A stretch of 64,000 nt of DNA from Paraspadella gotoi (GCA_051294375.1 CM119265.1:9496339-9560338), one strand, 5' to 3'; numbered from the stretch's first letter, positions 3,101 to 64,000 are shown. The notes: generated by a model from the letters alone, not told the origin. Numbers and translations are program-made.

Positions 3101-6100
3101 GCTTCAGACAGCGGCAAGTGTCTCATTTCATTAATCCCCGTCCCTTACTTTTTCGAACCCAAATGTTATACGAAGCTGAAATGTTAAGGAAACAGTCGTC
3201 TAGATCGATGGAACCAAAAAGGTCACCAACTCCAACTCTAGTCCTCCTCTGTCCTCAAAATCTCAGGTTCTAAATACTCCGGGTCACTTTAGCTTTTAAC
3301 TGGGTCCTTTACTTAATGCATAGTAGACTAACGGGTCATCAAATATGTCATTTGGTCATTTGGTCACTTCATTGATGCAGTAATATATCTTTCTAACACG
3401 ATGGGGATTGTTACAAAGAGTCTGATTTGGGGCAGACGAAGTAACTGTAATTCAGAGCTGTCTTTTCATCAGTCTGTTGGCGCGAAACGTTTTGACATGC
3501 ATAATATCTATTTCTAAATATGGGAAAACTGCTTTCACTTCGTAGATTCGAGAGTTGTTGCATGCTACTGTAGGTGGAATTAGTTTAGGGGAATCAATCA
3601 CGAGGTAAGTTTTGAAGTTGGGACGAATTCTCATTGGGATGTTTCACCTTGACGCGTTCACAGCCTGTTCCTGGAAGGATTTCACAAAAACCAAACTAAC
3701 TTGGATTTAATTCAACAATAAAACTTTTGATTTTAATCAATAAACAATTGTACCAAACCTACAGATTTCCTCCACGAATATCCAAGAGTCATCGAGTTTG
3801 CTACAATCGGACTTTAACATGGCCGTTCACGAAGAGGCCCAAGTTAAGGTTATAAACAGTATATTTCAGAACATAATTGTTTCATTTATCCTCTTTTATT
3901 TCATTTTTCATTCATTTTCTTCACATCAGTCGTCGAAATCGCGAAAGAAAGTTTCCTCCAAATCTTCGGCTATCACACAAAATTCTTCGGCCATCACACA
4001 GAATTCATCATCCATCAGCCAGAATTCTTTGGCCATATCGCAGAATTCCACAGCCGTGTCTCAGAATATTTCGGCCATAACTCAAAATTCTTTGGCCATT
4101 AGTCAAAATACTTTGGACATGACTCAAAATTCCTCGGCCGTTAATCAAAATACTTCAGACATAAGCCATAATTCTTCGAGCGTCTCTAAAAAATCCTCCG
4201 CAATCACTCAGTCAAATTCCGTGGCCTCAACCAATAAAATTATGGCCTCAACTCAAAATAGCTTGGCCTCAACCGAGAATTCCCTGGCCTCAACTCAAAA
4301 TTCTCTGGCCAAATCTGAGTCGGTGGCGCTGAGGTCGAAGAGAAATTCTTCCAAATCTCAGTCGAATTCTGTGGCCGCGAATCACGTGACGAACGGATAC
4401 CCGAGGAACGCCATCTATCATCACCAACAAGTACACAATTGCTCGTTGTCATTGGTATCAAAAATAGATTGGTCGCACCGCAGTAGCGTAGGGAGGGTCA
4501 TACCTATTACATAGTCACTGTGCTAGTACACTGGCAAGATATGAATATACTCCGGCACCTCGGGCGTTGCCTTTCGTCTCTTAGCAACGGATAATGACTT
4601 TTGTAAAGTCATTTTCGTTGGACATTTGTTTGAGGACCTGCATGACGGGAAAAACGGGTAAAAAAAAAATTACGGTTACCAAGAAAAGGTTTGTATTTTT
4701 GAGCCTCAGTTCGGGATTCATTTCTCGGTCGAGACATGTAGCAGAATAATTTAAATTGAAATCTTAATCTAAATTAAAATCCTAATCTAAATTAAGGTTT
4801 CGCCCCTTAATCTTAGGTCTCGTACTTCGCGTTTAGGTTTAGTTCCGCAAAAGCGCGTGAAAAACAGAGTAGATTTTAGAAAACGGCTTTTCAATTCTCA
4901 CGCTTTCGATCTGCATCGCTTGGCGGCAATTTTTCTCTTCTCTCTCCCTTCCTTCTTCTCTCTCTTCTCTCATCTCTCTCTCTCTTCTCTCTCTTCTTCT
5001 CTCTCTCTCTCTCTCTCTCCTCCAGCAACCCGCTTAAAGTTCGTGTTAATAGTAACCGTCATTGTCCATTTGTTTCGTATATTCTTCGTTTCCCCAAACT
5101 CTCGTTCCGCGGCGCTGCAGTCATCGGCGCAGCAGAACGCCGCCGGATTTGCCGGCGTCGGTATGGCCGGCGCCGGTATGGCCGGCGCGGGTTTGGCCGG
5201 CGTCAATCAAAATCTTTTATTGGGCGGCGGCGATATTGGTTCTCAGGTAAAACGCAGTAGAAAACCGAAGATGGCGCCACTTTTTTAAAACCAATCGCTT
5301 TTCTGGTGTTCTTGTTTATGTTTAATTATTTTTTTGTTCTGATTATTTCGCTTTATCTGATTGTATATGATCGAGTCAATGCCACTACGGGAAATCAATA
5401 AAAGTCTAACGCTATTTGTTTTCGCTCGATTTTTCGTGAAACTAAAAAACGGGAATAGAATAGAGACTTTCGATGATGTTTCCCCACTGCCCCCGCCACC
5501 AACACCAAACTTCATTTCCCCCCGTCACCGACCCCTTCCTCCCAATTCGTATTCCTTAGGTGGTTTGTTCCGGGCGAACCCCCCTGCTTACCCCGACCCC
5601 TTCCCCCGACTTTTTGGCGTCGGGAAGAGGGGGTTACGGCGATGGCGCGAGTAGCGTCACCAAGGTCTTTTTTAATTAAGCTTTTTTTTTTAATTTTGAT
5701 CACTGATTTTCAAGCTAATTTTCTCTCTTTAGTTTTTAGTAGAAAACAATTAGAAACTTTTTTTCCCATTATTCGGAATGTGTGCAGAGAAAAAGATTTC
5801 ATTTTCTTTGGTCCTTGAAATTCCCTTTATTCCCTAAATTTCCAAGATTCCAGATTCTTTGAAAAAATTTCGACATTTTTTTTCTTAAAGAAAATAATTG
5901 ACACCCCTCCCTTTCTCTTTCAGCAACCAAAATTTTCATTGGACAATTCTTTTAGCGTAGTAACAAGAGTTCATTAATTTTATATAAATCAATGTCGCAA
6001 AAAATTTTTCGAGATTAAAAAAACATTTCTTTACAGTTAAATGAACACTGAAAGAATTTCGAAAAATTTTTTAAACTTGAAAAAAGAAGCAATTTCCGAA

Positions 6101-7340: not shown

Positions 7341-8500
7341 TTTTTAAATTGAATATTTATTCGTTAATTTTCAAAAAGAGCGGTTTACAAATCGTTTTCA
7401 AATTAATTACCGATTCTTTCCAAAACCTCTTCTGGCCGCTATCCACATCATCCACACCGATCCACAACGATCAACGCTACTCACGAAAGCGACTTCCGGT
7501 CTCTGACGTCGCGCTTCGGCGCCACCCACTATTCCACGACGATCTTGGCGCCGCCGCATTCTGGTCACGTGACTCCGTCTGCGTCGCGGTCGGCGTCGCC
7601 GGCGACGCTTTCCGGCGTCGCTGCCACCCTTTTTAACTTCGCAGACGACCCACTCGCTCTCTGTTTCGTCTCTGTCTCAGTCGTAATCGATGACGTCGCT
7701 CTCCGTCCTCGTCTCACCACCGTCGTCGACTGCAGCTCACCACCTTCAGCATGATGAGGATGCGAGATCCTTCGCGGTCTCCCAGGGCGCGATAGTCTTC
7801 TTGTCGCTCGTGATGAAAACCTGAGAGAAGAGAGAGAGAGGAGTCGCCTTTTCATTACTTCGTTGCGTCATCTTTAAAATATATATACAATTATACATGA
7901 ATTAAACGAATGATGGCGTTTTCCATCCTATACGGGTTTTTTTCTTTTGTTAACGAGCTTGTGATTAGCAAAATTTACTTCAGTAATACTAATATCCTAT
8001 TATCAGCTTTTGATGTTCGAAGCGAAACCCTCTTTCACGCACAACCTGGAAAATGTCGACCATGGTGTTGAAGGTGCAGACGAGAGATCCGAGGACAACG
8101 CCAAAGGCGGATGGTCTTGTCTTTGCTTCCGGTCACGATGAATTCGTTGTCGGGAGAGATGGCGCTGCACCACACCTCGTCGTCATGGCCCTGTCATGAG
8201 AAGAGGAAAGGTTAAAAGTCCTTCATTAGATGAACACACCCATGGTCATGATGACAAAACCAAACTTACCTTGAGACTGGTGAGTAGACGTTCACTGTCC
8301 ATGTTCCAACTTTGACGGTGGCGTCGCCACTACCGCTGACAAGGTAGCGCCCATTTTCTGAGAGCATCAGACAAGTCACCGCGCGCTGGAGAATTAAGGA
8401 ATTGGGCTTTGACTAATATGTAGTTTTAATTGTGAAATTGCTTGGAAAATGTAATCCTGATTACAGAATTCGTTTTTATTACGATACCGGTATAACATAA

Positions 8501-8572
8501 GGGGATGTAGCTCAGTGGTAGAGCGCTCGCTTCGCATGTGAGAAGTCCAGGGTTCAATCCCCTGCATCTCCA
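8501..8572 (+). tRNA. tRNA-Ala(CGC), duplicate of 20144-20215
   Basis: GGGGATG...CATCTCCA full cloverleaf, G3:U70, anticodon arm CTCGC-TT-CGC-AT-GTGAG. Confidence 0.9.
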
Positions 8573-8802
8573 GTCTTCTTTATTTTAGTACTGTTATTAT
8601 CAAAGTTGACTTATTTCTTCTTAACTTAAAAAATGAACAGTTACTTTTACATTTTTACTGCGAACGAAGCTTGTTCTATGCGAGAGTTACGGAACATAAG
8701 TGATAAATAAGTACTGATTAATAGGTATTTTTTAGTTAAAGCTTCACTGAAACATATTTGTGGATCCGCGTAAATATTAAATAAATGTTGTTAAATTTTG
8801 TT

Positions 8803-9713
8803 GGAACGCATGTAGCTCAATGTAGAGCTCTTCCTTCGCGTTCAAGAAGTTTTGGTTCAATCCCCTTTATTTCCAGAGTCCCATTTTTTAGGTATGAGTA
8901 TATATATATAAAAGTAATTAAAAAGAATATTAAGTAATTGATGGTCAAAGTATTTTTCTTTATAACGACGCATCCATGAAATATGATATGATACGAATGA
9001 TACGATATGATATGATACCGTATAACATAAGGGATGTAGCTCAGTGGTAGAGCGCTCGCTTCGCATGTGAGAAGTCCAGGTTCAATCCCCTATCTCCAGT
9101 ATTCTTTATTTTAATATGTTATTATAAGAGTTACATTATTTTATTTTTAATTAAATACTTCTTAAAGATATTTTTAGTTGAAAACTTTAATGAAAGTGAT
9201 GTTGCTCAGTGGTAGAGCGTCGCTTCGCATACGAGAAGTCCAGGGTTCAATCCCCAGTATCTCCAATTCTCCACATTATCGGTTATAATTTTTTTAACAA
9301 AAACAATGAGGAAGTTTCCGTCAAACTATACCTAATATTTCGCATTGATTTATAATCATTAAATTATATAGAATAGTAAAATAAATGAGATGAATGGGGA
9401 TGTAGCTCAGTGAAGAGCGCTCGCTTTGCATGTGAGAGGTCCCGGGTTCGAACCCCTGCATCTCCACTTCTCCGTATTAAATCGTGGTAGTTAGCCCGTA
9501 AGCTTTTGTTTCATTAATAATATTATTAACATAATATGTTAAGTAATCGAAGAAACAAATTTTCAGGGTTTATATAGATATAATTATATGTACATAACAC
9601 CTGAAAGATTTTATGACCACGCGTCGACACATCCTTGCTGTCATAGGGGATATAGCTCAGTGGTAGACGCTCGCTTCCATGCGAGAAGTCCAGGTTCGAA
9701 TCCTGTATTTCCA
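8803..9713 (+). tRNA. Five further tRNA-Ala copies or pseudocopies of the left arm (~8805-8874, ~9031-9098, ~9196-9265, 9396-9466, ~9646-9713)
   Basis: One-to-one counterparts of the right-arm copies, most with 1-bp deletions. Confidence 0.75.
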
Positions 9714-11335
9714 CCAGTCTCCATGCTCTGAATTCTTTTATTTGGATTCTGACCTGATGCGCGACGAAGGAATCGTTGTTCGGCCTCGAAGCCGTGAAGC
9801 CGCTGAGTTGACGAAGGGACCGACCCGATCGATAATTCCAAAGCTTCAACTCTCCGCTCTTGGTGCCAGTCACCGCCTCTGCAAAATGATGCAATGTTTA
9901 GGTATAATTATTTTCATGCAGGCATCACCTCGGCAAAAGTGATAAAAATCGCTGCCTCTGCGATCAAATGGCAAACGAAAATGAATTATGAACCAACGAC
10001 TCACCCGTGTTGTTAAGCAACACGGTGCAGTCAACAGTGAGCGTCCATGTAGACCATTTTAGGCTCCGTGGTTCTGTTGATGTCCTTCTCCAGGAAAAAG
10101 GTATGTAGGTGGCTTCCCCGTCTTCGTATTGGTGTATCCCACGATGGCGCAATCCTGCTGGTAATGGTTGTGGTAATTGATCAAAATGAAACTGTCTTAT
10201 TATAAAGATTCTCCAGATCCTCATTTTAGAACTACCCTTTTCCATCACAATAACCTTTAACCAACCCTCGAACATGATTGGCCCATAGAAATCCAAATCC
10301 GAACCTGATTGGGTGAGAGAGCCAAAAAGTCGACCTTGTCGCAGAAGAGGTTCGCCGATCGACACTTCACTTCTCTCCACGCCTTCATTTGGATCAGATC
10401 CCAGACTACAACGCTGAAAAAAGGAAGCGTGATTTTATCAGAAATCAGTTATTGTTATTGCATATTGACTACATGAGTAAATTGAGTAAAGTCGGTGAGC
10501 TCAATTAAAATTGGTTATTAATTAGAGATTAGTATTCAAATTAGGAGTAGATTGGCTTTGTACAAACCATACTTCAGTATCGCGCTATTTCATAATTTAT
10601 TCAAATATTAATCAATTGATCGATTGAATGGTAAATTTACAGATAGATTCTCCAAATTTCCCCACTATTTCGCCAACCTGATCTCGTTGCCATAGCGATC
10701 GCAACGCGCGAATATCGCCGAGTTTCTGTCTTTAGTCAGGATGCATTTGGAGCAAAGTTCCACCTAAGAGGCGAAAATACAAACACAATGACACGATCGT
10801 GACGAGAATATGCTCGATGAGGGCCGCGTTACCTGGGACATGGTGAGGGATCGCCGGTTCGGAAGTTCCACACTTCGAGCGCCTGGAAGAGTTGACGGTC
10901 GGCTTCGGGAGCGGAGCCTAATTACAGAAGAAGGAGGTTGTTTAATTAATCGACGTAAAAATTTCCCATGTTTTGTTTCAAAGAAAGTTTATATTATCTA
11001 AACTTTTCTTTTTTTTCGTCCTCACCTCGTGCTGCCCCCGGACTCGTAGGCATCGGATATCGACGAGGCCGACCAACAATCGCCTCCGGATGCGAGATGC
11101 AGATTGGAACATCCTTCCGTATCAGATTGCATGCTGTGTACGATTTCGCCCGTCTGAGAAAAATTTCGAAATTAATTATTATACATATTAATCGACAATT
11201 AGTGACGGTTGAAAAACGGAAAACATCCAGTTTTGTCCCAGTAATGTTAAGCGTTCGAATCCTTTGAACGAGTTAGATGTAGAAACAAACTAACTGAAAG
11301 ATTATAAGTTAAAGAAAGGCACATATTCATCGTCA

Positions 11336-11576
11336 GGGGATGTAGCTCAGTGTAGAGCGCTTCCTTTACCTGCTGGCCGATTTAACCTAATGAGTAGGTA
11401 GTTGTCTTCTATCCTAGCATGGCCACTAAGGCACCTATCACTCGCTTATATGCAAAGTTAGCATGTTTAACCACTATCCACAAAGCTCCAAGATTAAATA
11501 AGTACTGTCGAAAAAGTGATATTAACCCAGCAGCTAGTAAAGGATGAGGTCCGGGGGTCGATTCGCCGCATCTCCA
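11336..11576 (+). ncRNA. Second copy of the tRNA-Ala-shelled RNA with ~170-nt insert
   Basis: Reverse complement of 17100-17342 apart from two 1-nt deletions and two substitutions; followed by an oligo-T run. Confidence 0.7.
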
Positions 11577-14500
11577 AGTATATGTTTTTTTTTTCTCACT
11601 ATTTTTTTAAATTCAACCATTGTTTATTACTTTGTCCAGCGCAAAAAACTTCTTAACAACATGCAATATGATTTATCTCACTATTTCCTGACCTCTATGT
11701 CCCAGACTTGTGGCGGCCAGTGTCTCGATCCGGCGATGACGTATTTGTCATCCGGCTGATGATCACGCTGACGATCTGAGAATTCTCCGCGATCTCCGTT
11801 CCTTCGTTGTAGATGGAGTAGCGACCGCTGGACCGGAAGTTGTAGGACTCCTCTCGTTGGAGACCGCCAACGCCGTGTTGGCTGCGGATGGTAATAAGAA
11901 TGTAAGCTGCTTAATTTCTCTAAATTCTCGAACGCTATTGTCAAATACTCACCCTCTTCGTTGTACTGATAATTGTAGGACTCTTGTTGATAACTCTCCA
12001 TGTTCTCTTCCCTGTAATCCACCGCCGATTGCGAAGTCTGAGAGCAGCGCAGGAAATAAAACAATAAAACAAAAGATTAGATTTTAAAAAAAAACAGCTT
12101 GCGTTCTGATCTCGCGCCTTCGAGCGTGATCGGGAAAAGTTTTTTGATTCGCTAAAAGACAAAGGCTCCTCTCATCACGGAAAAACGAAAAAGTCTTTTG
12201 TGTTATTTTTGTTTTCGTGACGTCAGAGCCGTGGAAAGATCTCGAGAGCGGGTAGGGGAAAATGTTTTAGAATTTTTAATTTAAGGGAGAGACGTTGAGA
12301 AATTAAAACGAACGAATTACGACGCGGGGAACGAATTTTAAGGGGATTGAGTCCAAGGCATGAAACTATCAGCGAAGCAAACAGATTTGAGAGCAACTAC
12401 GCTCGAAAAATGAGGGAGTTGAAAATCTCCCGAACTTTAATTCGCTACGAAAGCAACGATTAAAGGAGCCACTATATTGGCTACAACAAATACTATTACG
12501 CTAGAGCTATTACTACTTTTAACACAAAAGCGGATTCGTTAGGCCAATCGAAGGGCGAATCACAAAAAAAAAGAGCGGGTAGTTTCAATGATCTAAAAAT
12601 GAAGGTTTTTTCTTTTTGTCGAAACATGAGATCTGTTGATGAATATTTACTAATATTTAAATTTTTGTCTATAGTTTCCAATTTTAGTCGCATCTTTGCG
12701 CGAAGATCGGCGAAAACAATTTTTATTCACAAGTTTTCGATCTTCCAATCACCCGAAGCAATCATTTCCGATTCTGAAGTTGCGCTTAAATATTAAGACT
12801 AATGATTGAGGGAAATTTTCGTTTTGGTTTTTTAATTCCTGATTATGATTCTCTTTTGATCCGTGTATGTGTTGTACTATTCAATAATACTGCGATTTGC
12901 GCCGATACCTCGGACATCAATACAGCGATGCCGTGAGATGGCGCTTTTCGCCTCTACCTTCTGACGCTTGTGTCCTTTTCTCACGTGAGAGTAGAGAGGA
13001 GGAGACACCTTCTCCTCTTCCCTTCCTCCTCCCGCAATCGGCTTTTCGAATCCTTCGGCGACGCCGCCGCCAATTTTCGGCGTCAAAAACGACGCCGATT
13101 CGTAGTCGCCGGCGCCGAAGTCGTCGTAGTCGTCGCCGTCGAAACCGGCGTCGATTCGTTCTCGTCTCGTCACGTTTGTCGTCGTCGTCGTCATTCTCGT
13201 CGTCGCATCCTCGTCTTCGTCGCGGCGCTGGTCGACCACTCCTCCTGCCGCTTCTGCTGCAGCAGTCTCGATTCCTGTTGCAGCGTCTCGTGCTGCTGAG
13301 ATTCCGTCGGACTTCCTTCGCCGGAGACAAACGTCTCGCTCTCGCTGGCGTCGATGCGCGTCTGGCCGCCAGAAATTAGACCGTGGCGAAGGAAGATTCG
13401 GTCGTGCCGCCAGTGCGTCCGGCGGCAGAAGAAAAGCGTTGTCGTCGACGAGGTGATTGTAGCGATCCAACACTTCGTCGCAGGGAGACGTCGACGGAGG
13501 CGGAGAGAGGCGCGCCTCGGCGGCGTCGGAGTAAGCGTCGGCAGCGCGTCAGCGGCAGCGTCGCCGGACCCGAGAGATGAGCCAAGCGGGGGCGGTGAGG
13601 TGAGGGAGAGCGAGGTAAGGTTTGCGGAGGCGATGACGTCACCTTCACCATTGGATACGACGTCTAGTGAGTGGAATTTGAGATCGAGGAAGAAATGGAA
13701 ATCCGTTAAGACTAAAAAATAGTTAAGATTTAATAGTTAATAGAAATCGATCGAAAGGGGAAAGAGATATTTATATGTTTTCAAATTCGGATTAATTTTT
13801 TGATTCGAGCAATTGGATTTAAAATTATTTTCGTTTTAATTATTTAAACTTTAAAGCAGTGCTTTTATCATGAGATTGTTAGAGATTTTGGTTTTAGAGA
13901 ATGTAATCAGTGCGAAAATTATGTTTGTGGTTTTTTTTTTCGCGAATGCATAACATTTTTAATTGACGAAAGCGGACACTTGCAATACGACATCGACAAG
14001 AAACGATTTCGAAAAGATGACAAAGCGGAACGGACAAGGCGATGGTTGACAAAGCGGTTGATGACATCGACGAAGTCGACGACACAGAACGAGTTATAAA
14101 TTAAACTTACATTAGAACGAGACAAAAAAAACGAGACTAAAGCGTTTCGCGATTAAATTCGCGTTTCATTCCGAACTCGTTAATTACGAACGGAGGAATT
14201 AAATAAATAAATAACAATAAAATTATAAAATTAATTTAGTCTTTCCAGTTTCCTCCTTTCGCGTCTACGATCTCGCGAGAGAAAATAAATTGAATTTTGT
14301 GGATGGAATTTGAATCGACTACCGCGTCGAAGTCGTCGTTAACGGCCCCGCGATGACGCGGCTGCTGCAACTGCCGCAGCTTTCCTGCTGCTGCCGATGC
14401 TGCAGATTCTCCTCGAACTTTTCCTTGTCGAAGGAGAAGTGAGAAGCCAAGCGGAAGGGGATTCGGATCGGAAGTCATCGACGGCCGTGCGGAGGAGGGT

Positions 14501-14726: not shown

Positions 14727-14751
14727 NNNNNNNNNNNNNNNNNNNNNNNNN
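14727..14751. other. Assembly gap (25 N) at the inner edge of the inverted duplication
   Basis: Run of N. Confidence 1.
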
Positions 14752-15002
14752 ATTTTCGCACTGATTACATTCTCTAAAACCAAAATCTCTATCAATCTCA
14801 TGATAAAAGCACAGCTTTAAAGTTTAAATAATTAAAACAAATAATTTTAAATCCAATTGCTCCGAATCAAAAAATTAATCCGAATTTGAAAACATATAAA
14901 TATCTCTTCTTTCGATCGATTTCTATTAACTATTAAGTCTTAACTATTTTTTAATCTTAACGGATTTCCATTTCTTCCTCGATCTCAAATTCCACTCACT
15001 AG

Positions 15003-18000
15003 ACGTCGTATCCAATGGTGAAGGTGACGTCATCGCCTCCGCAAACCTTACCTCGCTCTCCCTCACCTCACCGCCCCCGCTTGGCTCATCTCTCCGGGTC
15101 CGGCGACGCTGCCGCTGACGCCGCTGCCGACGCTTACTCCGACGCCGCCGAGGCGCGCCTCTCCTCCGCCTCCGTCGACGTCTCCCTCGACGAAGTGTTG
15201 GATCGCTACAATCACCTCGTCGACGACAACGCTTTTCTTCTGCCGCCGGACGCACTCGGCGGCACGACCGAATCTTCCTTCGGCCACGGTCTAATTTCTG
15301 GCGGCCAGACGCGCATCGACGCCAGCGAGAGCGAGACGTTTGTCTCCGGCGAAGGAAGTCCGACGGAATCTCAGCAGCACGAGACGCTGCAACAGGAATC
15401 GAGACTGCTGCAGCAGAAGCGGCAGGAGGAGTGGTCGACCAGCGCCGCGACGAAGACGAGGATGACGACGACGAGAATGACGACGACGACGACAAACGTG
15501 ACGAGACGAGAACGAATCGACGCCGGTTTCGACGGCGACGACTACGACGACTTCGGCGCCGGCGACTACGAATCGGCGTCGTTTTTGACGCCGAAAATTG
15601 GCGGCGGCGTCGCCGAAGGATTCGAAAACGGCCGATTGCGGGAGGAGGAAGAGGAAGAGGAGAAGGTGTCTCCTCCTCTCTACTCTCACGTGAGAAAAGG
15701 ACACAAGCGTCAGAAGGTAGAGGCGAAAAGCGCCATCTCACGGCATCGCTGTATTGATGTCCGAGGTATCGGCGCAAATCGCAGTATTATTGAATAGTAC
15801 AACACATACACGGAATCAAAAGAGAATCATAATCAGGAATTAAAAAAACAAAACGAAAATTTCCCCTCAATCATTAGTCTTAATATTTAAGCGCAACTTC
15901 AGAATCGGAAATGATTGCTTCGGGTGATTGAAGATCGAAACTTGTGAATAAAAATTGTTTTCTCTGCGCAAAGATGGCGACTAAAATTGGAAACTATAGA
16001 CAAAATTTAAATATTAGTAAATATTCATCAACAGATCTCAGACAAAAAGAAAAATCCTTCATTTTTAGATCATTGAAACCTACCCGCTCTTTTTTTGTGA
16101 TTCGCCCTTCGATTGGCGCTAACGAATCCCGCTTTTGGTGTTAAAAGTAGTAATAGCTCTAGCGTAATAGTATTTGTTGTAGCCAATATAGTGGCTCCTT
16201 TAATCGTTGCTTTCGTAGCGAATTAAAGTTCGGGAGATTTTCAACTCCCTCCATTTTTCGAGCGTAGTTGCTCTCAAATCTGTTTGCTTCGCTGATAGTT
16301 TCATGCCTTGGACGTCAATCCCCTTAAAATTCGTTCCCCGCGTCGTAATTCGTTCGTTTTAATTTCTCAACGTCTCTCCCCTTAAATTAAAAATTCTAAA
16401 ACGTTTTCCCCCTACCCGCTCTCGAGATCTTTCCACGGCTCTGACGTCACGAAAACAAAAATAAACAAAAGACTATTTTCGTTTTTCCGTGACGAGAGGA
16501 GCCTTTTGTCTTTTAGCGAATCAAAAAAACTTTTCCCGATCAACGCTCGATGGCGCGAGATCAGAACGCAAGCTGTTTTTTTTTTTTTTAATCTAATCTT
16601 TTGTTTTATTGTTTTATTTCCTGCGCTGCTCTCAGACTTCGCAATCGGCGGTGGATTACAGGGAAGAGAACATGGAGAGTTATCAACAAGAGTCCTACAA
16701 TTATCAGTACAACGAAGAGGGTGAGTATTTGACAATAGCGTTCGAGAATTTAGAGAAATTAAGCAGCTTACATTCTTATTACCATCCCGCAGCCAACACG
16801 GCGTTGGCGGTCTCCAACGAAGAGGAGTCCTACAACTTCCGGTCCAGCGGTCGCTACTCCATCTACAACGAAGGAACGGAGATCGCGGAGAATTCTCAGA
16901 TCGTCAGCGTGATCATCACACCGGATGACAAATACGTCATCGCCGGATCGAGACACTGGCCGCCTCAAGTCTGGGACATAGAGGTCAGGAAATAGTGAGA
17001 TAAATCATATTGCATGTTGTTAAGAAGTTTTTTGCGCTGGACAAAGTAATAAACAATGGTTGAATTTAAAAAAATAGTGAGAAAAAAAAAACATATACTT
17101 GGAGATGCGGCGAATCGAACCCCGGACCTCATCCTTTACTAGCTGCTGGGTTAATATCACTTTTTCGACAGTACTTATTTAATCTTGGTGCTTTGTGGAT
17201 AGTGGTTAAACATGCTAACTTTGCATATAAGCGAGTGATAGGTGCCTTAGTGGCCATGCTAGGATAGAAGACAACTACCTACTCATTAGGTTAAATCGGC
17301 CAGCAGGGTAAAGGAAGCGCTCTACCACTGAGCTACATCCCCTGACGATGAATATGTGCCTTTCTTTAACTTATAATTCTTTCAGTTAGTTTGTTTCTAC
17401 ATCTAAACTCGTTCAAAGGATTCGAACGCTTAACATTACTGGGACAAAACTGGATGTTTTCCGTTTTTCAACCGTCACTAATTGTCGATTAATATGTATA
17501 ATAATTAATTTCGAAATTTTTCTCAGACGGGCGAAATCGTACACAGCATGCAATCTGATACGGAAGGATGTTCCAATCTGCATCTCGCATCCGGAGGACG
17601 ATTGTTGGTCGGCCTCGTCGATATCCTCGATGCCTACGAGTCCGGGGGCAGCACCGAAGGTGAGGACGCAAAAAAAAGAAAGTATATTAAACTTTCTTTG
17701 AAACAAAAAATGGGAAATTTTTACGTCGATTATTAAACAACCTCCTTCTTCCGGTAATTAGGCTCCGCCCCCGAAGCCGACCGTCAACTCTTCCAGCGGC
17801 TCGAAGTGTGGAACTTCCGAACCGGCGATCCCCTCACCATGTCCCAGGTAACGCGGCCCCTCATCGAGCATATTCTCCTCACGATCGTGATCATTGTAGT
17901 TTGTATTTTCGCCTCTTAGGTGGAACTTTGCTCCAAATGCATCCTGACTAAAGACAGAAACTCGGCGATATTCGCGCGTTGCGATCGCTATGGCAACGAG

Positions 18001-21000
18001 ATCAGGTTGGCGAAATAGTGGGGAAAATTTGGAGAATCTATCTGTAAATTTACCATTCAATCGATCAATTGATTAATATTTGAATAAATTATGAAATAGC
18101 GCGATACTGAAGTATGGTTTGTACAAAGCCAATCTACTACCTAATTTGAATACTAATCTCTAATTAATAACCAATTTTAATTGAGCTCAATTTACTCATT
18201 TACGTAGTCAATATGCAATAACAATAACTGATTTCTGATAAAATCACGCTTCCTTTTTTCAGCGTTGTAGTCTGGGATCTGATCCAAATGAAGGCGTGGA
18301 GAGAAGTGAAGTGTCGATCGGCGAACCTCTTCTGCGACAAGGTCGACTTTTTGGCTCTCTCACCCAATCAGGTTCGGATTTGGATTTCTATGGGCCAATC
18401 ATGTTCGAGGGTTGGTTAAAGGTTATTGTGATGGAAAAGGGTAGTTCTAAAATGAGGATCTGGAGAATCTTTATAATAAGACAGATTTCATTTTGATCAA
18501 TTACCACAACCATTACCAGCAGGATTGCGCCATCGTGGGATACACCAATACGAAGAACGGGGAAGCCACCTACATCACCTTTTTCCTGGAGAAGGACATC
18601 AACAGAACCACGGAGCCTAAAATGGTCTACATGGACGCTCACGTTGACTGCACCGTGTTGCTTAACAACACGGGTGAGTCGTTGGTTCATAATTCATTTT
18701 CGTTTGCCATTTGATCGCAGAGGCAGCGATTTTTATCACTTTGCCGAGGTGATGCCTGGCATGAAAATAATTATACCTAAACATTGCCATCATTTTGCAG
18801 AGGCGGTGACTGGCACCAAGAGCGGAGAGTTGAAGCTTTGGAATTATAGATCGGGTCGGTCCCTTCGTCAACTCAGCGGCTTCACGGCTTCGAGGCCGAA
18901 CAACGATTCCTTCGTCGCGCATCAGGTCAGAATCCAAAATAAAAGAATTCAGAGCATGGAGACTGGTGGAAATACAGGGATTCGAACCCTGGACTTCTCG
19001 CATGCGAAGCGAGCGCTCTACCACTGAGCTATATCCCCTTATGACCGCAAGGATGTGTCGACGCGTGGTCATAAAATCTTTCAGGGTGTTATGTACACAT
19101 AAATTATATCTATATAATACCCTGAAATATTTTGTTTCTTCGATTACTTAACATATTATGTTATAATAATTGTAAATGAAACAAAAGATTTACGGTCTAT
19201 CCGCCACGATTTAATACGGAGAAGTGGAGATGCAGGGGTTCGAACCCGGGACCTCTCACATGCAAAGCGAGCGCTCTTCCACTGAGCTACATCCCCATTC
19301 ATCTCCATTTATTTTACTATTCTATATAATTTAATGATTATAAATCAATGCGAAATGTTAGGTATAGTTTGACGAGAAACTTCCTCATTGTTTTTGTTAA
19401 AAAAATTATAACCGATAATGTGGAGAATTGGAGATACTGGGGATTGAACCCTGGACTTCTCGTATGCGAAGCGACCGCTCTACCACTGAGCAACATCACA
19501 CATCACATCATTAAAGTTTTCAACTAAAAATATCTTTTAAGAAGTATTTAATTAAAAATAAAATATGTAAACTCTTATAATAACAATATTAAAATAAAGT
19601 AGACTGGAGATGCAGGGGATTGAACCCTGGACTTCTCACATGCGAAGCGAGCGCTCTACCACTGAGCTACATCCCCTTATGTTATACGGTATCATATCAT
19701 ATCGTATCATATCGTATCATATCATATTTCATGGATGCGTCGTTATAAAAGAAAAATACTTTGACCATCAATTACTTAATATTCTTTTTAATTACTTTTA
19801 TATATATATATACTCATACCTAAAAAAATGGGACTCTGGAAATAAAGGGGATTGAACCCAAAACTTCTTGCACGCGAAGGAAGAGCTCTACCATTGAGCT
19901 ACATGCGTTCCAACAAAATTTAACAACATTTATTTAATATTTACGCGGATCCACAAATATGTTTCAGTGAAGCTTTTAACTAAAAAATACCTATTAATCA
20001 GTACTTATTTATCACTTATGTTCCGTAACTCTCGCATAGAACAAGCTTCGTTCGGCAGTAAAAATGTAAAAGTAACTGTTCATTTTTTAAGTTAAGAGAA
20101 AATAAGTCAACTTTGATAATAACAGTACTAAAATAAAGAAGACTGGAGATGCAGGGGATTGAACCCTGGACTTCTCACATGCGAAGCGAGCGCTCTACCA
20201 CTGAGCTACATCCCCTTATGTTATACGGTATCGTAATAAAAAACGAATTCTGTAATCAGGATTCACATTTTCCAAAGCAATTTCACAATTAAAACTACAT
20301 ATTAGTCAAAGCCCAAATTCCCTTAATTCTCCAGCGCGCGGTGACTTGTCTGATGCTCTCAGAAAATGGGCGCTACCTTGTCAGCGGTAGTGGCGACGCC
20401 ACCGTCAAAGTTTGGAACATGGACAGTGAACGTCTACTCACCAGTCTCAAGGTAAGTTTTGGTTGTCATCATGACCATGGGTGTGTTCATCTAATGAAGG
20501 ACCTTTTAACCTTTCCTCTTCTTCATGACAGGGCCATGACGACGAGGTGTGGTGCAGCGCCATCTCTCCCGACAACGAATTCATCGTGACCGGAAGCAAA
20601 GACAAGACCATCCGCCTTTGGCGTTTGTCCTCGGGATCTCTCGTCTGCACCTTCAACACCATGGTCGACATTTTCCAGGTTTGTGGCGTGAAAGAGGGTT
20701 TCGCTTCGAACATCAAAAGCTGATAATAGGATATTAGTATTACTGAAGTAAATTTTGCTAATCCCCACAAGCTCGTTAACAAAAGAAAAAAACCCGTATA
20801 GGATGGAAAACGGCCATCATTCGTTTAATTCATGTATAATTGTATATATATTTTAAAGATGACGCAACGAAGTAATGAAAAGGCGACTCCTCTCTCTCTT
20901 CTCTCAGGTTTTCATCACGAGCGACAAGAAGACTATCGTCGCCCTGGGAGACCGCGAAGGATCTCGCATCCTCATCATGCTGAAGGTGGTGATGCAGTCG

Positions 21001-21051
21001 ACGACGGTGGTGAGGACGAGGACGGAGAGCGACGTCATCGATTACGACTGA
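15003..21051 (+). CDS. WD40-repeat protein, 5' partial, with low-complexity N-terminal region; exons 15003-15716, 16636-16720, 16793-16983, 17527-17659, 17762-17847, 17920-18005, 18263-18371, 18523-18673, 18801-18925, 20335-20451, 20532-20678, 20908-21051
   Basis: GT-AG exons splice in frame. Clear WD repeats: AHQRAVTCLMLSENGRYLVSGSGDATVKVWN, GHDDEVWCSAISPDNEFIVTGSKDKTIRLWR, AVTGTKSGELKLWN, ITPDDKYVIAGSRHWPPQVWD. Stop after ...DVIDYD. Confidence 0.88.
17082..17091 (-). terminator. Pol III oligo-T terminator of the tRNA-like RNA
   Basis: T10 on the minus strand just after the discriminator base. Confidence 0.7.
17100..17342 (-). ncRNA. 243-nt tRNA-Ala-like Pol III gene in which the anticodon loop is replaced by an extended helix and a ~170-nt insert
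   Basis: 5' end GGGGATG TA GCTC AGTGGTA GAGC (A box, D arm); 3' end AGGTC CGGGG TTCGATT CGCCG CATCTCC A (B box, T arm with one G.G mismatch, acceptor). Closing helices TCCTTTAC/GTAAAGGA and CTGCTGG/CCAGCAG; T10 run 8 nt downstream; no internal TTTT. Confidence 0.75.
18967..19038 (-). tRNA. tRNA-Ala(CGC)
   Basis: GGGGATATAGCTCAGTGGTAGAGCGCTCGCTTCGCATGCGAGAAGTCCAGGGTTCGAATCCCTGTATTTCCA; intact cloverleaf. Confidence 0.9.
19225..19296 (-). tRNA. tRNA-Ala(TGC)
   Basis: Cloverleaf with anticodon loop TT-TGC-AT; one T-stem mismatch. Confidence 0.85.
19429..19500 (-). pseudogene. tRNA-Ala(CGC) pseudogene
   Basis: Acceptor 5' strand TGTGATG mispairs; anticodon-stem and T-stem mismatches. Confidence 0.8.
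19605..19676 (-). tRNA. tRNA-Ala(CGC)
   Basis: Intact cloverleaf, identical to 20144-20215. Confidence 0.92.
19837..19908 (-). pseudogene. Degenerate tRNA-Ala(CGC) pseudogene
   Basis: A/B-box remnants and CGC loop retained; acceptor stem destroyed. Confidence 0.75.
20144..20215 (-). tRNA. tRNA-Ala(CGC)
   Basis: Intact cloverleaf, G3:U70. Confidence 0.92.
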
Positions 21052-22152
21052 GACAGAGACGAAACAGAGAGCGAGTGGGTCGTCTGCGAAGTTAAAAAGG
21101 GGTGGCAGCGACGCCGAAAAATTCGGCCGTTGCAACAACACGGCTCTGGTCGGCAGCATAATATATATCAATTATACTCAGTACAATTATTACTATTTTT
21201 TTTTCGTGCTTAGTTTTTAAGTTACATACGCGAAAATATAACTGGATAATTCGGATATTGGACAGGCATCGCGGTATGAAATATTCAGCTACGATATTTT
21301 TATTTTTATTTCAGCTTTGCATGCTTTATATTTTTTTTTTCCTCTCGTGTGCGATCACTTTGTTCGTGCGTTCCATTCAATGTGCATTTTTATCTTGTAT
21401 GAAATAAAAGGATTATTTTGAAACAACTTATCGTAATCGTGCAGAATGGCGGGTTTGCTCTTTCACAAAGCTGGAACTGCGAGAAAATCTGATGTTGAAT
21501 CTTAACGAGGTTGTCAGCGAAACATCTGGTAGCTGGTACATGAAAAGATTTTCAGTAAAGACTAAACTAATCTACGCGTTTTTAGAAAAGTCGTAACTGC
21601 GTACAATAATTTTATATTTGAAATAAAAAGATCGCATTGAAATCAATATTAAGATGGATCAATAATAATCTGACAAAACTCGATTTTTTTTCGTTTTTTC
21701 GCAAGCGATAGAAGTATACTACGTCTATATTGCTACGACTCAAAAAATGTCGTATTATACTCCATTTAAAAAATTGGCCCTGGGACATAACGGGTGAAAG
21801 TATAATCAGTAAAGACTGGAGAGTGGGAGAGTGGGAGAATGGGAAAGTGGGAAGGCAGGACGGAGAGAGAGATAAGTGACAAAAATCTCAACCGAAGATG
21901 AAAATGTTTGATTCCGAAGAGTTCATTTTAAATAAATTGGATTGGATAAGGTGCGTTTCATAAAAGTGCGCTCGAGCGGGACAAGGCAACATGGTGACTG
22001 AGGTTTCATGTAAATAAAGTTAATAACTTTTGTTTGAGATAAAATCTCACTGTGGCCAAGTAGTTTTCCTTCGAGAGAATAAAAGAAAAAGGGAAGGGGG
22101 AAGGGGGAAGGAAAGGCACGGGAAAGTGTTCGACGCGGAGGCTACGCGCTTG

Positions 22153-25100
22153 TTAAGTCGGCGCCCCGACTTCGTCTTCGATGCCGCGTGAATTGGATCG
22201 GACATTCTCCAGATTGTTCCGGGCCTCTTTCAACACTTTGTAATGACTGACAAGAAGTGAAAAAATCGATTTTAATAATTAATAAAACGTTAATTCGAGC
22301 AAAAAGATGGCTCACTTGGAGAGCTTCTTGACGACGTGCGTCTCGAATCCCTCCTTCATCCGATTGGTGGCTTCGAGTCGCGAGATGGCTTCGCGCAGCA
22401 ATCGATCTTGATTTTTCAGTTTGTTCTTCAGAAGCAACACATCGTCGGGATCGTCCACGTTCTGAGAAGATGATTTCAAAGTTTAGACGAATCGCATCCG
22501 AAATAAAATAATCTCAACGTCGGAATCTACCTCGAGCATCTCGAAGACGCCCCCTCCTTCCGCCGGCAACGTCGAAGTCCAAAACTCGTTGACGAGGCGT
22601 TGGACTTCGGTCAGGAGCGTCGACAGGTTGGAGAAGCCGTTTTCGATCCGACGAAGAAGACCGAATTCGGGATGCTGGAGAAGAACGTGGGGAAGGTAGT
22701 TTCTTACATAAGGAAATAACATGCAATGTGTAAAACAAAAGAGCTTTTAAATGAAACAAACTAAAACGGTTAACTGAGCCAAGAAAAAGAAGTTTCGCTA
22801 ATTGCGTTATCAATATTCCACAAAAACTAGAAAAAAGCGCGTTTTTTTTTTCAAAGCATGCCGAAAGAAGAGTAGCCTAATGCAAGCCGTCTATCCGAAG
22901 CTACAAAATAAATTCAAAATAAATTCAAAATAAAACGTGACGTCGATACTAATTTTATAACATCAATCACCAATTCATATCTCGTACCCGCACGTGAATC
23001 TCTGTCCACTGTAGATTCGCGAAATATAAAATTGACAAGAAAAAGGGTGAATGAAATGATTGTACTTCTGTGACAGGGTGGTTACAAAATGGAGCATTTT
23101 CTTCTTCCGATTAACATTAATTACAAATTATTAATTATATATTAAATACTACGTATATAGGTAATAGGTATGAAATATAAAATCCGAAAAAGAAACTTTT
23201 ATCGCACCAGTGATGCTCCGACAGGAATGCAGATGCTGATTTCACTTTCCCCCTGCTCCTCCTCCTCACCTTGCTGGGCGACGCCCGCTCCAACTCCTCG
23301 CGTCGCCGCTTAACCGCCACCTCCAACGCCTCCACGACGGCGTGCGCCTCCGCCACTTCCTTCTTCATCAACTCGAAGTCGTCAACACGACCGACGGCGA
23401 AGAGGAAGCGGAGGGCGGAGCGGGGGACGGGGACTGGGGATAAGGGGGGAAGACGATTGAATAGATTACAACAAAAATACAAATTTAAAAATACAAAATA
23501 CAAAAATACAACAAAAAACCTCATTCGCCATCAAAAAAATCTCACCTTTTTTCTCGTCGTCTCTCGCCACGTAAGACGAATCGTTTTTGGATGACGACGA
23601 CGATGAAATATTTAATTTTTTCGTCGGCGTTAACGGAAACCCGTTGACGTTGAGAATCTCATTCAAGCCTACAGATAATTAACGATTAAATGATAATTTC
23701 CAAACCGATTTGTGTCGGTAATTTAAAGGTCACTTACCCGATTCCTCGGTCCCCGTGGTGGCCCCTACCCCGTTGCTATCTGCGTTACTAGTCGATCCTC
23801 CATTAATTCCGCTGATGGACCAGAGACCCGAATCGCTGCCTCTCCGCGCATGCGCAGCTCTTCCTCCTCCCGCTCTTCCCCCTCGGTGCGACGAATGTGA
23901 CCTGACGCGCGCGTCCTTAATCGTTGGTGGTCGAGCGAATGCGGCGCCAACGGAGGCGCAATCGTGATGCACGTGAACCTCTTGATCCTTAGATGCTTTC
24001 GTCGACGTCGAAGGCACAACTTGAAAATCTTCCAAGCGTCGACGGAGCCTGAGTTAATACATATTATAAAAAGACATAGTTCATAAAAAGAACTAACACT
24101 AACACGCTTTACCTTTGATTCTCCTCCACGGCTTCCTTCAACCGATCCCGCAGCGCGTCCATCTCTTTCAAGTATTCCCCCAAGTCGAGCTCGGCACGTC
24201 TCTCCCTCCGATCCTTCTTCAGTCTCGTCAACACCCCCAACTCGTTCCTCACGGCGTTGACGAGGTCCTTGGTCTCCTTCAACGCGATCCGCGTAGTCGT
24301 CAACTCTTCCTCTTTGGCTTTAAGCTCGAGACGCTTAGCCGAGGCATCCCGGCGCAATTCTTCGTTGCTGGCCTCGACGGCGGCCAACCTCTCCGTTGCC
24401 TCCTTCTGTTTGGCCTTCAACTTTCGGTTGGCCTCGTCCTTGGTGGATATTTGGTCCACGGATCTTCGTAACAGGTCGTCCGCTTCTCGTAGGCGGCTCG
24501 CGAGATCCTGGCGTTCAGCAACGGCGGCGGCGAGATCGTCTCGGAGTCGCGACATCTCCTCGACGACGGCCGCTGGAATCTCGGCTTCGACGACTGGGGA
24601 CGTTCGATGGTCAGAGTTCTGAGTCAGAAAGATGTCAGTTCTGAGGTTTGGCGAAGTCGGCGAATCAGAGGGTCGATTCTTCAGACGCTCTTCGATGTTG
24701 TCGCCAAGGTCCCGATGAGTCTGCATTTGATTCTCCAGTTGTTTCCTATACGATGTTAAAAATAAATATGCTCAATTCAATCAGTTAAGTACAATAATAA
24801 TAAGTACAACTCTAATAATAAAACTCGTAGACCCACCTGAGCCGCCTCATTTCCTCCAAATGCCCTTGCAAGACGCTCGCGGGATCCTGACCCTCCAACT
24901 CCTCCTTAGAATCGTCGAAGGTGGCGACGATCGAGTTGAGCACCTCCAACTCTTCCTTCAGAGTCCGGTTGAGCAGCTCCGAGTCCCTCAACCGCGCCTG
25001 GAACGGCGCCAGCGACTCTATCTCCTCCTTGAGGGCGCGATTGAGAATCTCTTGGTCGCGGAGCTTTTCGCGGAGGGCGTCGACGCGAGGATCGAGTTTC

Positions 25101-28100
25101 GCCTGACGAACGGTGTCGTCATCGTTGGAGCTCCCGTTGGTCGAGGCCTCGCCGAAATCGTCCAGACCATCGGGGTAAGGGCGCTTATTAGAGTTGTCAG
25201 GAAAAAGGCATTTTCGGGTGGAGGGAGGGAGTTGAGAAGGCTGAGCGGCGACGGCCTCTTTGACTAGCGGCGCCGTTTGGGGAGATCGACCGAGTTGGCG
25301 CAAAAGCTCCAACGCCAGGTCGAGTTCGGTCTGCGTGGACTTGGCAGAGTTGGACGGCGGAGACGACGTCGCGGCGAAGGGGGCGGTGAAAGCGGGGAGG
25401 GGGGGAACTGTGACTTCGGAGGAACCGGAGGATGCGTCGGGAGTGGGGAAGATTGTCGTCTGGGGAGAGCGGGCGTTGGGGGGAGGGTCGGACTGGGTGG
25501 ACGCGCATTTGGTAGGCGGATGTTGGCGAGAAAGCGAATGGCCAAAGATTCCGGGACCGGATATGGAGAAGGAATCATCGACGGAGGGAAAACCGACGCC
25601 GACGGCCGGAAGGACGTCCGAGTAGGAAAGGATTTCTGCGAATGGGTTGGGTTTCGCGTTTTTATATTTCGCAATTATTAATTAATTTTTGATCTATTTA
25701 GTCATCCCTTTCCAATGTCACTCACCGGCGGGCGTCTCCTCTTCCTCCTCTCTGCTTCCCGATGGATTTCCGTGTGCCCTCCATCCGTTTTTCATCTGAT
25801 GCTGCAGCTGCTGCTGCGCCTCCTGCGCCCATTCTCCCTCTGAAGCGCTGGACGGCGTACGGTGCCGCTGCACTTTGCGATGCGGGCGGGGCGGGTGCGG
25901 CGCGTTGCGTCCGCCGCGGGGCGTCCCGTTGAGGCGGGCCTCGTCCTCGTCTTCGGTTGTGGAATAGATGGTGTTGCCGGCTGAATTGGAAGAGCGCGAG
26001 TTAATTAAGTTAGTTGAAAGAAAACAAGCCGAAAAATTTCCCGTTTTACCAGTTTGCGCTTCCTGCAACCGAAACTGCGCCTTCTTCAGTTTCTGGTGCA
26101 ACTGACTGATGAGGATGTCCTTTCCTTTGACTTCTTCCACCAGGCGCTCCAGCTCGTCCCTTGCTTGAGACGCCGCCGCCTGATTCTCCGAAAGGATCCC
26201 GCGATACTTCGTATTCTGGAAGGGGATACAGAGAGAGAGAGTAGTAGTTTATTCTATACCAATTCCATTTCTCTTCCCCATTCTCGCTCGAGACACCATT
26301 TCTTCTTCCTCTTCCGCCTCTTTTCCTCTCTTCCCCTTCCTCAACAGCGAGTGACGACAGAAGGAGAGAGAGAGAGAGAGATTTTTGTTCTGTCTTGGGT
26401 TCTACTTCAGGTGGAGAGCTCCCTCTCAGAGAATATACTTTTTTTGCCTATTTTTTGGACTTTTCCTTTGACTTTACTCATAGAGAGATAGAGATACTGG
26501 ACCGACCCAGCAGTTAGGAATAGATTAAAAATGACTAAGGATAGAATAAAAATATTTAACTAATTAAAATAAAAGGTAGTGTGAAAAATATTAGATAAGG
26601 AAAGTGAGAAAAGCGAAAAAACCCTTCGGAATTCTGTTTCCACGGCAACGGGGAAAAAAAGAGTCGACACAAAAAGACGAAAGTGAAATCGATTTTGCAG
26701 CAAACATTGGAAATCGATTTTTCGAGAGAATAACTTTAAAAGCTAAGTTTGTAGCCAGAAGAACGAAGGAGAGGCCAACTTTTTTGGGTTCGATAGCGAG
26801 ATACCTGCGCGTTCTTTTCGTTGAGCAGATTCCTCAAGGCACCGACTTCGGCATGAAGCTCCGCCGCTTCCGCTTCGAGCGACGTCATCTGCTGCTCCCA
26901 CGCGGAATGTAGGCTGAAGAGAGAAAGAACATACAATCCGATTTCACCCGATTTAAAAATTACAGGCCTGAAACTAGTTAAAAGTAATAAAAATTTTATC
27001 GATTCAAGCTGGGTGGCTTCTGTTTAATAAAACCTAAGTCGTCAATAGCGACTGGGAGATAAGAAATCTTGAATTTGAAATCGCGCAGGCCGAGAAATTT
27101 TATGATAGAGAAAAAAAAAGAAAGAAAGAAAGACAAGAAAATTTTTATCGCTTTTCTACCTGGTGGCAGATTGGAGTTCGGCGGCCAATCTCTCGACCTC
27201 CTCGCGAAGATCGGCGTTGGCCTCCTCCAAAGCATAGATCTCGGAATCCGTCTTCACTCTTTGGTCTTCGTCCTCTTCGTCAACTTTGGCCGATTCGGCG
27301 TCATGCTTTTTGAAAGAAAATACACCTTAGATAATTAAGGACCAAAACAGCAATCGCCCTCTTCTATTCTAACCCCAAGAACGCGCGCGAGATTCGCTGA
27401 CGTCTTCCGCAGGTACGCGGCCTGGCGCCGCAGCGCCGCCATTTTGTTGGGCGCAATCACGTGATCCTCGGTCGGCGTCTGAGTGTCGACGGACGCGTCG
27501 AACTGCGTCGAGAGGTCGTCGGCCGAATCCTTCAGACACTGGAGGGAGAAAAAAAAATAAAATGGAATTAGAAAGAGAGCGATTGATCAGAATGAGAGCT
27601 AGAAAGCAAAGCAGTCTCGCCTGACAGAGGTTGTGCGCGTCAGCGATCTTCTTCTTCAAGCCCAAAATCTCTATTTCCCTTTCGCGCAGATCTTCGCCCG
27701 TCGCCGAACGCGCCGACGCTGGGACGTCTCGAGACGCCCTCGTCTCCGGGTCGGCGCCGGGGACGTCGCTGGCGCCGTCGATGGGGAGGGTGGCTTCGAG
27801 AAGCTGACGTTGGAGAGACTGGTTTTCGGAATGAGTTTCCGCGAGCTGGAGAAGAAATTGAGGGAAAAGGTGTTAATTAATATAAATGTCATTAACTCGA
27901 AAAAACTTTCGAGAACCGTTTCTTGCCTGACACTTGACGTTGTCCAGCTCTCGCTGCAGAGCGTCAAAGGCGTTGCGGTTCAAAGTCGCCGTGTCGTCAA
28001 GAGATTTGGAGGCGTCGTCAGTTGAGGGCAAACGTTGGCGAAGATCGCCAATCGTCGCCGAGTGGCTATTGAAAAAAAAAGGTGTTGAGGTTATTTTCAA

Positions 28101-31664: not shown

Positions 31665-31715
<51 letters not shown>

Positions 31716-63951: not shown

Positions 63952-64000
63952 TAATTGCGTAGTTTGGTAAATCTTTCCATTTTTAATTAGGATTACGTTA

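Follow-up and report, generated by a model that had tools for sequence, protein, structure and literature searches.

In engineered transfer RNA (tRNA) scaffolds, a cargo replaces the anticodon loop, and the frame gives it transcription, processing and stability. Among natural tRNA genes, archaeal pre-tRNA-Trp carries a C/D guide in its intron, and the long intron of Drosophila tRNA-Tyr forms circles. Here, we analysed a 64,000-nucleotide (nt) stretch of Paraspadella gotoi DNA (GCA_051294375.1, CM119265.1:9496339-9560338), which is called the window below at its full length, and describe a 243-nt unit in which a tRNA-Ala frame encloses a 171-nt insert in the place of the anticodon loop. The engineered scaffolds are artificial and bacterial, whereas this unit is a natural gene of an animal nucleus; in the archaeal and Drosophila genes, splicing sets the cargo free and leaves a working tRNA, whereas the unit is without splice signals. 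We consider it fairly probable that the unit gives rise to an unspliced tRNA-framed RNA, whatever its cargo may be. As the single most likely cargo, we tentatively propose, from the predicted fold, the core of a telomerase RNA (TR) that templates TTAGG repeats.

The TRs of insects resemble the insert in being short, in having a TTAGG-type template (a candidate one in the insert) with a helix just 5' of it and a hairpin or pseudoknot 3' of it, and in having no H/ACA domain (PMC9841428, PMC11892584). The order of closing stem, template and pseudoknot was described for insect TRs (PMC9841428), a 135-nt TR that has neither CR4/5 nor H/ACA is sufficient in moths (PMC11892584), and the TRs of Hymenoptera are likely to be transcripts of RNA polymerase III (Pol III) (PMC9841428). 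Because the closing helix, candidate template and possible pseudoknot of the insert follow the same order, its layout supports the TR reading. However, insect TRs have upstream promoters of the small nuclear RNA type, whereas the unit has an internal promoter and tRNA ends. Moreover, the pseudoknots of insect TRs rest on covariation and the moth TR on reconstitution, whereas the core of the unit is a fold prediction. The word tRNA appears in neither PMC9841428 nor PMC11892584.

Two further systems come close to the unit. Eukaryotic intron-containing tRNA genes also have an insert near position 37 that is complementary to anticodon-loop bases (PMC10275265), but the unit differs from them: it lacks both the A-I pair and the 3' bulge, its insert measures 171 nt instead of at most 133 nt, and its anticodon does not match its acceptor. 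Transfer-messenger RNA (tmRNA, RF00023) shares with the unit an Ala acceptor with G3:U70 and A73, a T arm and a long helix in the place of the anticodon arm; the unit differs in its full D stem and in being a nuclear animal gene.

The tRNA-Ala frame, its insert and its likely transcription

The unit lies on the minus strand with nt 1 at 17342 and nt 243 at 17100, and its 72-nt frame (nt 1-36 and nt 208-243) encloses the insert (17136-17306). Of the 21 stem pairs of the frame, 19 are retained: the acceptor stem (7/7, including G3:U70, followed by A73) and the D stem (4/4) are complete, and the breaks are at U28:U42 and G52:G62. The sequence TATAAG begins at -33, a run of ten T (T10) lies at +9, and the longest T run inside the unit is 3. 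The 243-nt unit (72 + 171), the Ala acceptor with G3:U70 and A73, the intact D arm, the upstream TATAAG, the terminator-like T10 run and the insert's freedom from TTTT had all been reported in the initial annotation and were confirmed. The annotation named neither the two breaks nor the minus strand, and the lack of TTTT, although true, carries no significance and is weak evidence: 3563 of 5000 insert shuffles and 203 of 1606 composition-matched windows are likewise without it. The ARAGORN and Rfam checks proposed there have been run. With default settings, both passed over the unit, although they found 8 and 10 tRNA-like genes in the window, whereas ARAGORN with long introns allowed gave one gene with a 171-nt insert at this place. 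For the insert, Rfam gave no match at E values up to 10, and nothing in the window resembled it over more than 13 nt beyond an inverted duplicate arm that is described in the last section. The parts of the unit are as follows.

17307..17342, minus strand: 5' half of the frame (unit nt 1-36), with acceptor strand, D arm with A box and 5' anticodon strand; D stem 4/4
17136..17306, minus strand: insert replacing the anticodon loop (unit nt 37-207), 60% A+T, from the long-intron setting of ARAGORN
17100..17135, minus strand: 3' half of the frame (nt 208-243), with variable loop, T arm with B box, acceptor strand and A73; G52:G62 mismatch in the T arm
17370..17375, minus strand: putative TATA-like TATAAG at -33, from the sequence
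17082..17091, minus strand: T10 run at +9, candidate Pol III terminator, from the sequence
17300..17306, minus strand: nt 37-43, forming the 5' side of the 7-bp closing helix; candidate P1 and template boundary, pairing probability 0.96-0.99
17143..17149, minus strand: nt 194-200, forming the 3' side of the same 7-bp helix, from the predicted fold
17233..17284, minus strand: long hairpin (nt 59-110) of 15 pairs in three segments with a 19-nt apical region, candidate P2; z -2.36
17158..17204, minus strand: weak third hairpin (nt 139-185), pairing probability about 0.7

The arms form a near-perfect 16-nt inverted repeat, and the anticodon stem is lengthened by 12 additional Watson-Crick pairs, 5 and 7 on either side of a 1x3 loop, a number reached by 0 of 200,000 shuffles. 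The two helices noted earlier are present with a pairing probability of about 0.99; all 8 bp claimed for the first one are there, but three of them are ordinary anticodon stem. Inside the closing helices, the predicted fold consists of a 15-nt unpaired stretch, the 15-pair hairpin (nt 59-110), a 6-pair hairpin and the weak third hairpin. The unit as a whole folds no better than its shuffles (z -1.04), and neither does the part from nt 112 to nt 193, whereas nt 28-211 (z -2.92, 3 of 300 shuffles) and the long hairpin with its flanking bases (nt 58-111; z -2.36, 10 of 500) fold better. The sequence UUAACC occurs three times in the insert (unit nt 49-54, 134-139 and 189-194, i.e., 17289-17294, 17204-17209 and 17149-17154), each time in or at a multiloop junction; any 6-mer was found three times in 1463 of 20,000 shuffles, and the internal direct repeats of the insert are not significant (879 of 2000). 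Three likenesses, between the AGCAUG region and U6, between nt 27-35 and a U12 branch site, and between one junction and nematode spliced leaders, had no Rfam support and were dropped.

An RNA run, X9, whose 4519-nt contig of the host gene skips a 72-nt GT..AG intron, contains a 220-nt contig from the unit. Its letters 29-220 run without a gap along the 192 bases from 17300 to 17109, with a single difference, and they join the insert colinearly to 27 nt of the 3' tRNA half at a depth of 3.9. If its first 28 letters are colinear as well, the contig spans unit nt 15-234 and lies wholly inside the unit. The insert sequence is thus confirmed by an independent run. The contig is also a hint of transcription, with DNA or intron carry-over being possible; the 27 letters past the 3' junction are fewer than the 31 required by the tool for bridging, and the contigs show no strand, ends or level. 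The comparison of the runs to the window ended at 17300, short of the 5' junction. The DNA runs X1 and X5 and run X10 have no depth at 17199-17300, but the filter drops some records, perhaps among them the contig of the unit itself, and this is no evidence either way. The same is true of the X9 bins 16675-16805 and 16937-17067, where the cover (51.9 and 41.4) is that of exons only and 156 intron bases have no X9 contig, and of 13400-14280, which is almost uncovered by the runs.

According to the canonical rule for tRNA introns, base 32 and the antepenultimate intron base, a purine, form the A-I pair, the 3' splice site lies in a bulge, and introns reach 133 nt (PMC10275265). In the unit, the antepenultimate insert base is U (nt 205), which forms no A-I pair with U32, and U32-A38 and the next four pairs have a probability of 0.99, leaving no 3' splice-site bulge in the predicted fold. 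The C at position 37 and the U32-A38 pair had been pointed out before and were confirmed. The register of the insert fits a position of 36/37 or 37/38, and its 171 nt exceed the 133-nt range. Spliced in silico, the unit would give a UAC (Val) anticodon on an Ala acceptor with G3:U70 and A73. The unit is likely to be transcribed by Pol III and is likely to be left unspliced. The initial annotation had seen in it a candidate new class of tRNA-scaffolded Pol III RNA. A tRNA-Ala frame with a structured cargo is supported, as is the colinearity of the insert with the 3' half in RNA run X9, but the class comprises a single locus.

The unit lies antisense within an intron of a WD40-repeat gene, 1.6 kb from a tRNA-Ala cluster on the same strand, the members of which allow the frame to be compared with its neighbours.

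18967..20215, minus strand: tRNA-Ala cluster antisense in the WD40 gene, with three CGC genes and one TGC gene, all four intact, plus two decayed copies
19837..19908, minus strand: decayed tRNA-Ala with 15/21 pairs and bases 29, 30 and 41 in common with the unit, from stem comparison
19429..19500, minus strand: decayed tRNA-Ala with 16/21 pairs, from stem comparison

Unit nt 1-27 are identical to two of the intact neighbours. The 11 bases that differ from all four of them lie at positions 29-64, with none in the other 36 positions (Fisher p 0.0004, with borders that were chosen afterwards), and the pairs 29:41, 30:40 and 50:64 are altered on both sides. These paired differences from the intact genes agree with the compensating anticodon-stem changes claimed earlier; however, bases 29, 30 and 41 are also found in the decayed copy at 19837-19908, and the changes may have been inherited. 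Because of these common bases, the anticodon stem probably came from another tRNA-Ala variant, and the proposed origin of the unit from the adjacent cluster gains support. The intact acceptor, D arm and promoter of the unit, compared with 16 and 15 of 21 pairs in the decayed neighbours, are moderate evidence of selection on the frame; gene conversion from the neighbours could be another cause of the clean 5' end.

A candidate telomerase RNA core

The insert contains UAACCUAA, which corresponds to 1.6 repeats of the TTAGG complement and is predicted to be unpaired (probability 0.79-0.97). It sits 6 nt 3' of the 7-bp closing helix, directly ahead of the long hairpin. The elements of the candidate core other than the closing helix and P2 are as follows.

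17286..17293, minus strand: UAACCUAA (nt 50-57), unpaired in the predicted fold; candidate TTAGG template with a length of 1.6 repeats
17249..17260, minus strand: 5' strand of the candidate P3 (nt 83-94), 9/12 pairs with nt 123-134
17209..17220, minus strand: 3' strand of the candidate P3 (nt 123-134), rivalled by a local hairpin of nt 115-133

With one repeat plus one base as the minimum for a template, the longest matches in the insert are 8 nt for TTAGG, 6 nt for TTAGGG and 5 nt for TTAGGC. Among shuffles of the insert, 163 of 5000 contain an 8-nt TTAGG template at any place, and 323 of 5000 contain a template when four animal repeats are allowed. In 116 of 50,000 shuffles, such an 8-mer lies no more than 12 nt from the closing helix. 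In the non-duplicated window there are only two such 8-mers, one of which is UAACCUAA. The candidate P3 adjoins the 3' strand of the long hairpin; its 9 of 12 pairs, which were chosen after looking, are equalled by 834 of 20,000 shuffles. Neither this template nor two Ala(AGC) loop motifs, which are considered below, were part of the initial annotation, which named no cargo.

It is possible, although rather unlikely, that an animal lineage moved the core of its TR into the anticodon arm of a tRNA-Ala gene, thereby giving it an internal (type 2) Pol III promoter and finishing by the tRNA machinery. Under the TR reading proposed above, the A and B boxes would recruit TFIIIC and Pol III, and the T10 run would end transcription. 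RNase P and RNase Z would trim the ends, and CCA would be added as it is on a tRNA. The splicing endonuclease would fail to cut because U32 pairs with A38 and the 3' bulge does not form, and the frame would shield the RNA ends in place of a cap or an H/ACA domain. TERT would bind the core, the 7-bp helix 6 nt upstream would bound the unpaired UAACCUAA, and pairing of nt 83-94 with nt 123-134 would close a pseudoknot on the long hairpin.

Since TTAGG is the telomere repeat of arthropods (PMC8977481), the placement of the host, here judged from the PRRC2 protein encoded in the window, matters for the TR reading. This protein matches brachiopod, tick and mollusc proteins at 25-30% over most of the searched region, and its nearest relative, at 61%, comes from a catalogue of marine eukaryotes; the nearest relatives of the window's IFT22 stand at 75-78%. 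In a PRRC2 tree of 23 rows, in which the Elysia row was mis-cut and which had no outgroup test, the window is sister to the sampled arthropods (90/91, unstarred). In a paper on chaetognath expressed sequence tags, TTAGGG was dominant and TTAGG was found in about 30% (PMC2678813). There are no telomeric arrays within the window. We put the chance that the telomeres of the host consist of TTAGG a little below even.

Searches for homologues covered metagenome contigs and prokaryote genomes. A strict pattern of the frame had 0 matches in each of the two collections, and a relaxed one matched 10 prokaryote loci, among which a BLAST check, the only one made on them, found no homologue. A pattern of template plus T arm was found at at least 113 metagenome loci, with no frame carrying an insert among the matches listed. 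Of 123 matches within the pattern loci, 59 lay in tRNAs called by ARAGORN and the other 64 were, by eye, SINE heads (SINE, short interspersed nuclear element), fragments or chance; two had an acceptor-like strand upstream and no frame, the best BLAST E value being 0.061. Scans of viral sequences (36, 19 and 109 loci) were used to gauge chance. The 80 metagenome contigs listed are all longer than 1.1 kb, and short RNA contigs seem to be absent from the collection. Because the collections searched contain no eukaryote genomes, the searches say little about the absence of homologues.

Several points weigh against a telomerase RNA. The template was spotted first and tested afterwards, its end is separated from the hairpin by 1 nt, and the closing helix encloses about 60 additional nt. 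The best match to TTAGGG (6 nt) is under the template minimum. The best gapped duplex for the pseudoknot has -6.7 kcal/mol, which 1391 of 5000 shuffles equal and which is not significant. Nearest-neighbour energies do not favour the pseudoknot either, with an opening cost of 9.7 kcal/mol for a duplex of -6.0 kcal/mol. The candidate P3 has three central mismatches, and its core pairing comes from two motif copies with a palindromic CAUG, so the pseudoknot may be a by-product of these. Its loop is also without a U run, in contrast to the invariant U in insect TRs (PMC9841428). No described TR model in Rfam and no CR4/5 or H/ACA domain was matched in the insert, and the metagenome and prokaryote collections gave no homologue and hence no covariation support. 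On the side of the host, PRRC2 has a long branch (1.93), is unstarred and falls outside the sampled arthropod crown (80/95). As for the frame, judging from the sequence of the decayed neighbour, inheritance may account for two of the three pairs with compensating changes, in which case the compensation would be older than the insert. Finally, the X9 contig has a depth of 3.9 and only 27 letters beyond the 3' junction, with strand and ends not shown.

Other explanations for the unit

A possible but somewhat doubtful alternative is an unspliced tRNA-framed RNA that acts as a tRNA mimic, possibly alanylated via G3:U70 and too long for the ribosome; with an Ala(AGC) anticodon loop at its hairpin tip, it would be a decoy for, or a sensor of, alanyl-tRNA synthetase or anticodon-editing enzymes. 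The perfect acceptor and D arm would suit such a role, which requires no assumption about telomeres and has the RNA contig in its favour. In addition, the insert carries two copies of the anticodon-loop motif of tRNA-Ala(AGC).

17255..17262, minus strand: Ala anticodon-loop motif with AGC (nt 81-88), placed at the apex of the long hairpin, motif match
17211..17218, minus strand: second Ala(AGC) anticodon-loop motif (nt 125-132), motif match

Two copies were found in 5 of 20,000 shuffles against a background of 8 in 112,250 positions, and the first copy closes as a loop at the tip of the long hairpin; the motifs may be remnants or a displayed loop. On the other hand, they were noticed after the fact and match over only 8-9 nt with no anticodon stems, the second one is partly paired in the fold, and a mimic leaves the placed template unexplained.

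Remnants of Ala loops would equally suggest templated pieces and thus a functionless relic, which we regard as unlikely. It supposes that a single fold-back or templated insertion, or a hairpin transposon that has since decayed, broke a tRNA-Ala(AGC)-type gene, with leaky transcription from the intact A and B boxes. The near-perfect 16-nt inverted repeat of the arms could be made in one event, two dead copies lie nearby, and the z of -1.04 for the whole unit fits. Once the bases in common with the decayed neighbour are set aside, the two clear stem changes of the frame are both breaks (28:42 and 52:62). However, the acceptor, the D arm and the two promoter boxes show no damage, whereas both dead neighbours have broken acceptor stems. 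Moreover, the 171-nt borders show no target-site duplication, the separate 15-pair hairpin folds better than shuffles, and the insert matches nothing else in the window over more than 13 nt.

An unusually long tRNA intron, the splicing of which would yield an intron circle along with a 72-nt tRNA that combines an Ala acceptor and a UAC (Val) anticodon, is distinctly improbable. The length of the insert keeps the exact tRNA register, ARAGORN at its default calls the insert-less gene tRNA-Val(TAC), and tRNA introns of up to 133 nt are known (PMC10275265). These points face the antepenultimate U, the missing A-I pair and 3' bulge, the C37 and a length of 171 nt above the cited range. The product, which has two stem mismatches, would by inference put Ala at Val codons, and the X9 contig holds the insert still joined to 27 nt of the 3' half.

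A SINE or a miniature inverted-repeat transposable element within a tRNA is disfavoured, as both tRNA halves flank the insert, the borders have no target-site duplication and a TA..TA reading leaves a 9-nt loop; further dispersed copies of the insert were not found in the window outside the duplicate arm. A tmRNA was rejected given the D stem of 4/4, the absence of a tmRNA call by ARAGORN and an Rfam score of 9.2 bits against a cut-off of 47. The initial view that the unit is neither a canonical intron-containing tRNA nor a SINE head is upheld by the A-I, bulge and flank results. As a separate observation, 11 of the 36 viral loci contain short phage-type tmRNA genes (238-259 nt), and in ten of these the tag has the form ANDNVA..AA; the usual bacterial tmRNA is much longer.

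Genomic setting and biological meaning

The region 7609-13919 is an inverted copy of 14752-21120 (6.4 kb) with 96.7% identity and 162 gap columns, of which the left arm has 110 and the right arm 52, and it includes a second copy of the unit.

11336..11576, plus strand: second unit copy in the inverted duplicate arm, 239/243 identical, with two single-base deletions plus two substitutions, of which one falls within the B box

A 25-base N gap lies near the duplicate at 14727-14751. According to contigs of two runs, letters are missing from the right arm at 15929-16001, which shows that the assembly is error-prone in this region. The left arm with the second unit copy is probably an assembly duplicate, and this copy is not independent evidence. 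The duplicate also doubles the tRNA cluster and yields broken tRNA calls at 9030-9716. The WD40-repeat gene (15003-21050, plus strand) is expressed and spliced in X9, and the strand opposite to it bears both the unit and the tRNA-Ala cluster. One of its exons is matched at about 82% by the organism of run X10. Elsewhere in the window, there are a centrosomin-type gene (23000-41000, minus strand, with Cnn_1N at 40637-40924), IFT22 (35320-36280, plus strand) and PRRC2 (46000-64000, minus strand, with a 5-kb open exon), all three far from named proteins. A GC-rich block of 5.4 kb (54436-59829) lies between inverted repeats of about 230 nt that are 85% identical; by eye it is a decayed DIRS-like retroelement, and Pfam found nothing on its frames. 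Additionally, there is a 21-bp tandem array in an open frame (3963-4310), and an AT-rich repeat of 75-140 nt has four dispersed copies at 60336-61145.

By analogy, the unit would work like an engineered tRNA scaffold with the layout of an insect TR core, whereas membership in the TR family is not shown. In the open-access literature of PMC and bioRxiv, we found neither a tRNA-framed TR nor a natural animal tRNA scaffold. In 2020, searches for TRs were reported to have failed in arthropods, nematodes and flatworms (PMC8480181), and according to a 2025 review the ecdysozoan gap is still open (PMC12133305). If the TR reading is true, a tRNA-framed TR would add a route of TR biogenesis with an internal promoter, RNase P and RNase Z processing and a CCA end. 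It would also explain why searches based on promoters and H/ACA domains miss the TR and why tRNA finders discard the unit, and it would provide a search pattern for the TRs that are missing in arthropod-adjacent groups. Even without telomerase, an unspliced cargo RNA in an animal nuclear tRNA frame would be a natural form of the engineered design.

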